14,385 nucleotides of DNA, taken from IMG/VR virus record IMGVR_UViG_2713896833_000003, positions 1 to 14,385 of that record; one strand, 5' to 3'. This DNA is from a virus (Duplodnaviria > Heunggongvirae > Uroviricota > Caudoviricetes). This document shows, piece after piece, positions 5,959-6,769 of this stretch (position 1 is its first letter; every line of letters begins with the position of its first letter). The notes beneath the pieces were generated by a model. It was not told the origin of the DNA. It worked only from the letters and a program-made list of their open reading frames with translations, and did no database searches. The position numbers and the translations under genes are program-made.

Positions 5959-6281
5959 ACTTTCAGGCCCCTCTCATGTAACCAGTGGGCTGCACGCTGC
6001 CTGGCGTTTTCCTCACCGGCAAGCAGTGCGCGGATGATACCGACCGCCTCGCTGTCGTCGTCCTTCACCGCGGTATGAAGCGTGATCCCCCGGGCCACGC
6101 CACGCTTTATCGTGATGACGCCTTTTTTCTCCAGTGCGCGAAGATGCTCCACCGCTGCATTCACTGAACGGTATCCCAGCATGGTTGCCACCTCCTGATT
6201 GGTTGGCGGGAAGCCACGTTCTTTCTGGTAAGAAATCAGCATATCCAGCACCTGCTGCTGGCATTGAGTTAACGTCGTCAT
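5955..6281 (-). CDS. LexA N-terminal DNA-binding-domain-only protein (winged HTH, no S24 peptidase domain)
   Basis: LTQCQQQVLDMLISYQKERGFPPTNQEVATMLGYRSVNAAVEHLRALEKKGVITIKRGVARGI aligns closely to the E. coli LexA N-terminal domain ([55 protein letters not shown]); ATG at 6281 overlaps the upstream stop (TAATG); 108 aa. Confidence 0.7.
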
Positions 6282-6769
6282 TACGCCCCCACGTAATTCC
6301 CTGACAGATACCACTCATCACTCGATACAGCGCGCTTGCTGCTTTTCCGTAAACACTGCTCACGACGCGCCAGAAAATTGTTTCGTTCTGGCTGGGAATG
6401 GCTTTCACGGAATGCCGCCATCCACACCGTTGCAGCACGACGGTATAAGCCCCTGGACTCCAGTTCTTCAGCCTGGCGGGTCAGGCACAAAATTACCCGG
6501 GGATCGTTAGTGCCGACATAGAAATTGCGCACAGGTCTGGTTTCACGAACTGGTTGTGGTTCCGGCTCCTGCGCTCTCTCAGTCAGGCGCGGGAAATGTC
6601 TGCGTGTATCTCCTTCACAACGGTGAGCCACACGCCCACTCTGACGTAACTTGCTTGCTGACTGCAGAACGCGCTGCCGTGAGTAACCAGCAAAAGCATC
6701 CGCAATGTCTCCGGAAGTACACCCCGGATGGGCTTCAATGTATTTCTGAACTTCATTCAAAAGACTCAT
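6281..6769 (-). CDS. PerC/Pch-family transcriptional regulator-like protein with N-terminal winged-helix-like extension
   Basis: C-terminal LESRGLYRRAATVWMAAF resembles the PerC-family GLWRRAA motif; ATG at 6769 preceded by AGGGGG with 5-nt spacer (ORF track start at 6775 is GTG with no spacer); stop overlaps the next gene's start. Confidence 0.5.
   Translation of the reverse strand: MSLLNEVQKYIEAHPGCTSGDIADAFAGYSRQRVLQSASKLRQSGRVAHRCEGDTRRHFPRLTERAQEPEPQPVRETRPVRNFYVGTNDPRVILCLTRQAEELESRGLYRRAATVWMAAFRESHSQPERNNFLARREQCLRKSSKRAVSSDEWYLSGNYVGA

Follow-up and report, generated by a model that had tools for sequence, protein, structure and literature searches.

A common PerC-family gene, yfdN, and its predicted two-domain product in the early region of a decaying SfV/CPS-53-type prophage

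The DNA analysed here, a stretch of 14,385 nucleotides from a tailed-phage record (IMG/VR IMGVR_UViG_2713896833_000003, positions 1 to 14,385; hereafter the window), carries on its minus strand a gene that is almost certainly orthologous to yfdN, which is the PerC-family gene in temperate phages of the SfV/CPS-53 type. Its product is identical in 155 of 164 residues (95%) to YfdN of Escherichia coli K-12 (b2357), which is encoded by the cryptic prophage CPS-53/KpLE1, and is 96-99% identical to SfV orf40, to the SfIV, SfII and mEp460 (gp44) proteins and to many Stx2c/Stx2a phage proteins, with 66% identity to Sb43 of ST64B. At the DNA level the gene is 100% identical to loci of E. coli KKa014 and KFu021, where it bears the RefSeq label 'yfdN: PerC family transcriptional regulator', and the protein matches PHROG 1324 ('transcriptional activator') over its full length (amino acids (aa) 1-161, E 8e-77). 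The gene is present in 2668 of 5426 complete E. coli genomes, with at most four copies per genome, and has also been found in Shigella and Salmonella phages and in K-12, which lacks the enterocyte effacement locus (LEE). The original prediction, which was made from the sequence alone, had presented this gene as noteworthy, and in this respect it does not stand: the finding was correct but is ordinary and not new, given that yfdN is a very common prophage gene whose annotation already exists for thousands of genomes and which earlier authors have termed 'the K12 unique PerC homologue' (PMC5931665), so that it carries little weight as a discovery.

The open reading frame (ORF) is a real gene and not a chance occurrence, because it is supported by the Pfam PerC and PHROG 1324 matches, by the ratio of nonsynonymous to synonymous substitutions (dN/dS) and by identical DNA annotated as yfdN in RefSeq. 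This ratio is about 0.2 in comparison with the K-12, SfV and ST64B orthologues, with values of 0.17 and 0.21 for the two folded domains when compared to ST64B, and by this measure both domains and the family as a whole are under purifying selection. Overlapping ORFs in other frames (6013-6438 on the minus strand, 6336-6521 and 6556-6771 on the plus strand) were rejected as spurious, since homology and dN/dS favour the yfdN frame. The ATG start codon at 6769 is preceded by GGGGGTGA, and an alternative in-frame GTG at 6775 would yield the 164-aa form of the RefSeq annotation. On the upstream side, the TGA (6774-6772) of an O-like replication gene is followed after 2 nucleotides by the yfdN ATG, and on the downstream side the TAA of yfdN shares letters with the ATG (6281) of a LexA-N-like gene in a TAATG overlap; from this junction layout it is concluded that yfdN is translationally coupled with both neighbours. 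The original prediction had delimited exactly this ORF, with its GLYRRAATVW motif but no mention of a strand, and had described it as coupled directly to its replication and LexA-like neighbours, and on these points it has proven accurate.

A likeness to PerC/Pch regulators had also been proposed, and a profile search against the PerC family had been named beforehand as the test that could overturn it. This search returned a significant match to Pfam PerC (PF06069), which extends over aa 98-152 (positions 6314-6478 of the window) and whose 39.4 bits (E 7.6e-10) exceed the gathering score of 22.6. Family membership is therefore upheld, but the likeness does not extend over the whole profile, of which YfdN covers positions 5-59 of 90, the C-terminal third being missing; EPEC (enteropathogenic E. 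coli) PerC covers positions 1-90 and a Pch-like protein positions 5-86, and in the two-domain YfdN relatives with a match the coverage ends at 55-59. Pairwise comparison of YfdN revealed 32% identity over 56 aa (E 1e-7) with EPEC PerC, which is encoded by plasmid pMAR2, and 46% identity over 41 aa with a Pch-like protein of 104 aa. The PerC signature core, LE.(K/R)G(L/F)(Y/W)RRAA..W followed by ER...RR..C, is present in YfdN, whose ELESRGLYRRAATVW...ERNNFLARREQC aligns with KYLEEKGFYRRAADRW...ERKLAAQKRAFC of PerC, a pattern that is also encountered in many family members, and all two-domain homologues, as well as EPEC PerC and Pch-like proteins, conserve G(L/F)(Y/W/F)RRAA..W. On the other hand, the 'MG(L/I)...FR' tail of PerC and Pch is absent from YfdN and its two-domain relatives, which possess a W.L.G.(Y/F).G tail instead, and with its 162 aa YfdN departs from the single-domain size of about 85-105 aa that serves as a mark of the PerC family.

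When the family profile was searched against 1.84 billion protein representatives (clustered at 50% identity; cut-off E <= 1e-3), 148 proteins were retrieved, about 41 of which contain both YfdN domains. Some 30 of the latter are full-length (133-165 aa), with identities down to 24-30%, the others being fusions or truncated calls, while the remainder of the 148 matches are PerC-core-only proteins, fusions or fragments. YfdN is a distinct and established two-domain branch of the PerC family. Several database entries fuse YfdN to its neighbours (the N-terminus of an HTH_36 initiator, RusA or a PF05869 domain); these look like frameshift or deletion products of decaying prophages rather than real architectures. 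PchE of enterohaemorrhagic E. coli (EHEC) was considered as a YfdN-type protein and rejected, as it corresponds to ECs1588, which is transcribed together with ECs1586-1587 from its own promoter and in a different context.

An AlphaFold2 model of YfdN, with a mean predicted local distance difference test score (pLDDT) of 74.8, portrays a two-domain protein composed of a winged helix, a disordered linker and a three-helix PerC-like core (Table 1). In this model aa 3-60 form a helix-strand-helix-helix-hairpin unit, and the extra N-terminal winged-helix-like segment that had been suspected from the sequence is thus matched by the predicted architecture. The linker varies in length and sequence among homologues, and the order of winged helix, linker, PerC core and subfamily tail is that of the YfdN subfamily. 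Helix 3 and the wing of the N-terminal domain contain invariant basic residues, which are compatible with DNA binding. No Pfam winged-helix family reached significance for YfdN in a Pfam scan, no solved structure was matched in a search of PDB sequences with the family profile, and no defence-system model of PADLOC matches the protein.

The window covers the left arm of an SfV/CPS-53-type prophage together with its early region. The synteny evidence, which comprises seven phage or contig loci together with the E. coli genomes, revealed a recurring order of cro, cII-like, O-like, yfdN, (dam), LexA-N-like, rusA, KilA-N, DUF968 and Q in SfV, mEp460, Stx2a_1447, Lys8385Vzw, ST64B, F1055 and the metagenomic viral contig L005, and yfdN is located directly downstream of the O-like gene in the window, in these seven loci and in K-12. 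L005, the one locus obtained when viral contigs were scanned with divergent single YfdN-type proteins, encodes a YfdN that is only 32% identical to that of the window and keeps the gene order. Between cro and yfdN, a consensus scan of the minus strand detected nothing that resembles a promoter. Because the gene lies inside a repressor-controlled early-right operon and has no promoter-like site of its own, its expression is not expected in the lysogen and should occur during infection or induction, driven by the early-right promoter. Of yfdN only 26 codons are left in phage cdtI, and in mEp390 the O-like gene runs straight into the LexA-like gene; since these two phages are without the gene, yfdN is a conserved but dispensable, accessory member of the early-right operon, a status that can be likened to that of the lambda nin region genes.

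Table 1. Features of the window and of the YfdN protein (coordinates in the window; subdivisions of YfdN are given with their residues).
Feature	Coordinates	Strand	Details
EcoRII-type restriction endonuclease	1728-2942	plus	
Dcm-type C5 cytosine methyltransferase	2977-4452	minus	with DNA_meth_N domain
PD-T4-3-type GIY-YIG protein	4817-5356	plus	PADLOC E 2e-99
Chimeric ORF	5272-5958	minus	228 aa; RusA N-terminal part aa 1-74, DUF968/HNH fragment aa 69-146, DNA methyltransferase fragment aa 134-205
LexA-N-like gene	5955-6281	minus	108 aa; Pfam LexA_DNA_bind E 3.7e-19; PHROG 362
yfdN	6281-6769	minus	162 aa; ATG 6769-6767, TAA 6283-6281
YfdN, predicted winged-helix domain	6590-6769	minus	aa 1-60; N-terminal; topology H1-b-H2-H3-b-b
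YfdN, Pro/Glu-rich linker, predicted disordered	6503-6589	minus	aa 61-89; pLDDT 40-61
YfdN, predicted PerC-like core	6323-6502	minus	aa 90-149; three helices, 90-105, 109-122 and 126-149
YfdN, GLYRRAATVW signature motif	6422-6451	minus	aa 107-116
YfdN, C-terminal tail	6284-6322	minus	aa 150-162; subfamily motif EWYLSGNYVGA at end; low pLDDT
O-like replication initiator	6772-7713	minus	313 aa; Pfam HTH_36 N-terminal; PHROG 391, E 9e-136
DUF4222 ORF	7703-7882/7924	minus	Pfam E 2e-19
112-aa ORF	7723-8061	minus	PHROG 1170, E 2e-70, full length
CII/YmfL-like gene	8058-8615		
cro	8608-8868		divergent from CI-type repressor gene
CI-type repressor	8966-9658		divergent from cro
HTH_17 protein and yfdT/S/R/Q/P homologues			between integrase and CI-type repressor, listed from high to low coordinates
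Integrase	13162-14325		intact

As regards function, the reading that we favour, and hold tentatively as a possibility rather than a probability, is that YfdN may be an accessory early-lytic regulator which combines a winged helix placed on DNA with PerC/ANR-type helices that contact a silencing or transcription protein. In such a scheme YfdN would be made only once the CI-type repressor is lifted, by infection or induction, the winged helix would tether the protein to DNA and the helical module of PerC/ANR type, which resembles tetratricopeptide repeats (TPR), would act through protein contact; likely partners by analogy with Pch and ANR would be nucleoid-silencing or transcription factors such as H-NS, StpA and Hha, and the outcome would be an adjustment of phage or host transcription during lytic growth. 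The scheme starts from the family membership, predicted architecture, operon position, purifying selection and dispensability described above, and what we infer is that YfdN binds DNA, with which partner it works, in which direction it regulates and on which targets it acts. In the window itself the prophage has decayed, with rusA truncated and the Q/late region replaced by defence genes, so that yfdN may be a silent passenger here. With respect to the analogy, it has been reported that PerC and PchA-C activate the LEE1/ler promoter, PchA-C by relieving H-NS/StpA/Hha silencing (PMC4764244), that ANR (AraC negative regulator) proteins exert their effect through binding to H-NS, to Ler and to AraC-type regulators (PMC10148876), and that a PerC homologue borne on a phage-inducible chromosomal island (PICI) has a link to ANR (PMC11773190); YfdN itself has a match to the ANR family over aa 96-142 that stays below the cut-off.

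A number of points weigh against this proposal. Fukui et al. detected no binding of Pch to H-NS, and the members of the PerC family act as activators, neutral proteins or repressors, as PchD and PchE barely affect ler, PchE represses curli and the PICI protein EcCIMP1_025 represses LEE1; because this behaviour is not uniform, neither the direction nor the targets of YfdN can be deduced from its family. YfdN covers the PerC profile without its C-terminal third, its TPR-like helical core belongs to the three-helix folds that match many structures non-specifically, and the promoter scan was a crude consensus search. The literature searched, outside of which falls the work of Porter et al. (2005) on PerC-like proteins and LEE1, contained no experiment on any YfdN-type protein, the sole relevant study being one in which yfdN was deleted from an MG1655 ler::lacZ reporter strain for the testing of Pch proteins (PMC5931665). 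Elsewhere in the literature yfdN was recovered by an overexpression screen for glycogen, lies in a UTI89 region associated with filamentation, and figures among the nodes, without annotation, of a network predicted for 'negative regulation of transcription'.

Other explanations have been weighed against this one. It is conceivable, if unlikely, that YfdN represents an ANR-like anti-regulator, in which case a transcription factor, e.g. H-NS, Ler or a protein of the AraC type, would be bound and inactivated by the PerC-like helices, solely through protein contact and with net repression as the result, and the winged helix would then be a second protein-binding surface that does not bind DNA; however, the match to the ANR family (NCBIfam NF033650) over aa 96-142 amounts to 22.5 bits and lies below the curated cut-off of 32, Pfam assigns the protein to PerC, ANR proteins are small and single-domain, and the invariant basic residues of helix 3 and the wing fit DNA binding. 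The original prediction had put forward a role as a Pch-like cross-talk activator of host chromosomal virulence loci, for example LEE1/ler, which we regard as quite improbable. Membership of the PerC family with its common G(L/F)(Y/W)RRAA..W core speaks for such a role, as do the activation of LEE1 by the prophage-borne PchA-C, the deletion of yfdN from the K-12 strain with the ler::lacZ fusion in which Pch proteins were tested (PMC5931665), and the recovery of yfdN overexpression in the K-12 glycogen-phenotype screen, which implies that host physiology can be perturbed. Nevertheless, because yfdN is present in 2668 of the complete E. coli genomes and ler in 697 of the same 5426, and because K-12 and phages of Shigella and Salmonella carry yfdN as well, control of the LEE cannot be its general or conserved role; furthermore, YfdN is without the C-terminal third that PerC and Pch possess, PchD, PchE and PICI-borne PerC homologues do not activate LEE1 (one of them represses it), and the gene resides inside a repressed early operon without a detectable promoter of its own.

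The position of the gene has also been weighed as a clue to a part in replication, in which YfdN would be a lambda P-like accessory factor that works with the O-like initiator, e.g. by recruiting the host helicase, and we consider this highly improbable. It would explain the constant coupling to an initiator in modules without a helicase-loader gene, as at the loci examined yfdN always follows the O-like gene directly (2 nucleotides apart or overlapping), no DnaB-, DnaC- or P-like gene is annotated in the early-operon modules, and the last ~24 residues of otherwise unrelated O-like proteins are conserved beside yfdN; in addition, the N-terminal domain shows a weak similarity (E 0.0034 over aa 3-67) to lambda Ren (PHROG 142), which holds the equivalent slot after P. 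Yet the conserved O tail is found in mEp390 without yfdN, cdtI has a mere 26-codon stub of the gene, the SfV and mEp460 O-like proteins are only 30% identical to that of the window with YfdN proteins that are 96-98% identical, and the L005 O protein is 80% identical in its N-terminal half with a YfdN that is 32% identical. As YfdN allele and O-like type assort independently, and mEp390 and cdtI lack the gene, a P-like replication partner was rejected. No ATPase or other known loader feature was recognised in YfdN, and the similarity to Ren, with an hhalign probability of 24% and no BLASTP match, is too weak for homology to be claimed. Finally, yfdN at this locus might be an inert passenger of a decaying prophage without current function, which we deem very unlikely. 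The operon downstream is wrecked, as the chimeric ORF, which joins the N-terminal part of RusA to pieces of DUF968 and of a methylase, is a deletion scar by which the KilA-N, DUF968, Q and lysis genes of the closest relative, KKa014, were removed; this region has been swapped for a PD-T4-3 gene and an EcoRII-type restriction-modification pair, and K-12 too keeps yfdN in a cryptic remnant. Against an inert passenger stand the intact ORF, which shows 100% DNA identity to the copies of prophages with Q and lysis genes still in place, the cI/cro switch, O-like gene and integrase, all of which are intact in the window, and the purifying selection on the family.

Apart from yfdN, the window displays several features that merit description. 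The O-like protein ends in a tail, REDPYFKASYDNVDYSQIPAGFRG (last 24 codons, 6775-6846), which was found in 57 phage records and is conserved among O-like initiators that are otherwise 30% identical or unrelated, with 83-100% identity in SfV, mEp460 and ST64B and recognisable variants in L005, F1055 and mEp390; this tail may act as a short peptide motif with a function of its own, or may mark a joint of mosaic recombination. Within the O-like gene, five iteron-like direct repeats with a 15-bp spacing (CAGATTTTGACGGGT and variants) are located at 7293-7415, where they encode the initiator linker SDSDPSKSDASKSDPSKFDASKS, and an 18-nucleotide inverted repeat is found at 7349-7386 in the same region. 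This segment is probably the phage replication origin, placed within the initiator gene, and in lambda the replication origin likewise lies inside the initiator gene. The 112-aa ORF and the DUF4222 ORF overlap by ~160 nucleotides in different frames, with family support for both; in KKa014 only the DUF4222 gene is annotated by RefSeq, and the fact that L005 has the 112-aa ORF directly 5' of its O-like gene and no DUF4222 ORF in its ORF list suggests a mosaic joint at 7703-8061.

SfV, mEp460, Stx2 phages and L005 all have the LexA-N-like gene at this position, and even mEp390, which is devoid of yfdN, has retained it. Its 108-aa product consists of a LexA DNA-binding domain and a short tail; an S24 peptidase domain is absent, for which reason the protein would bind in the manner of LexA but would not be cleavable. 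The defence genes form an island (1728-5356) in place of the late-regulatory region of the prophage (KilA/DUF968/Q/lysis). No Rfam family was found in the window, and at most 72% of the window is matched by any complete genome.

Few PerC-family proteins of E. coli are as widespread as YfdN, and the only mildly new point that emerges here is structural, namely that the YfdN branch keeps the helical PerC core alone, joined to a winged helix. Because the core is paired with a winged helix and is without the C-terminal third, the predicted architecture suggests that the PerC core may be a protein-interaction module; if confirmed, this view would help to explain how PerC, Pch and ANR act, and would caution that an annotation as 'PerC family' does not always equate to a virulence activator. 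A wider claim, which we regard as doubtful, is that YfdN types constitute a functionally distinct class of the PerC/ANR superfamily, in which an interaction module would be delivered to specific DNA sites by the winged helix, and with which temperate phages would, at an early stage of lytic growth, either free their own AT-rich genes from H-NS-type silencing or reprogram transcription in the host. If this were true, the PerC core would in general be a protein-binding and not a DNA-binding module, and the mechanism of PerC and Pch, which is poorly understood, would become clearer.

In comparison with known systems, PerC and Pch consist of a single domain, have 89-104 aa and cover the whole 90-position profile, whereas YfdN has 162 aa with a winged helix and a linker; PerC (plasmid pMAR2), PchA/B/C (EHEC prophages) and YfdN are all encoded on mobile elements. 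The ANR proteins, such as Aar and Rnr, are likewise small helical regulators of enteric mobile elements with a weak similarity to aa 96-142 of YfdN, and their action by protein contact with H-NS, Ler and AraC-type regulators fits the TPR-like module of YfdN; unlike YfdN, however, they are single-domain proteins of 4-10 kDa that are not encoded by phage early-operon genes. With respect to MarR/ArsR/MecI-type regulators, the N-terminal domain of YfdN is minimal, with 60 aa, lacks the dimerisation helices of MarR and is fused to a PerC core. From its K-12 and phage orthologues the YfdN of the window shows no substantial difference. In K-12 the genes flanking yfdN are fragments, and in many related phages a dam methylase gene, absent here, lies between yfdN and the LexA-like gene; with its phage and K-12 orthologues the YfdN of the window has in common both the two-domain layout and the slot directly after the O-like replication gene.
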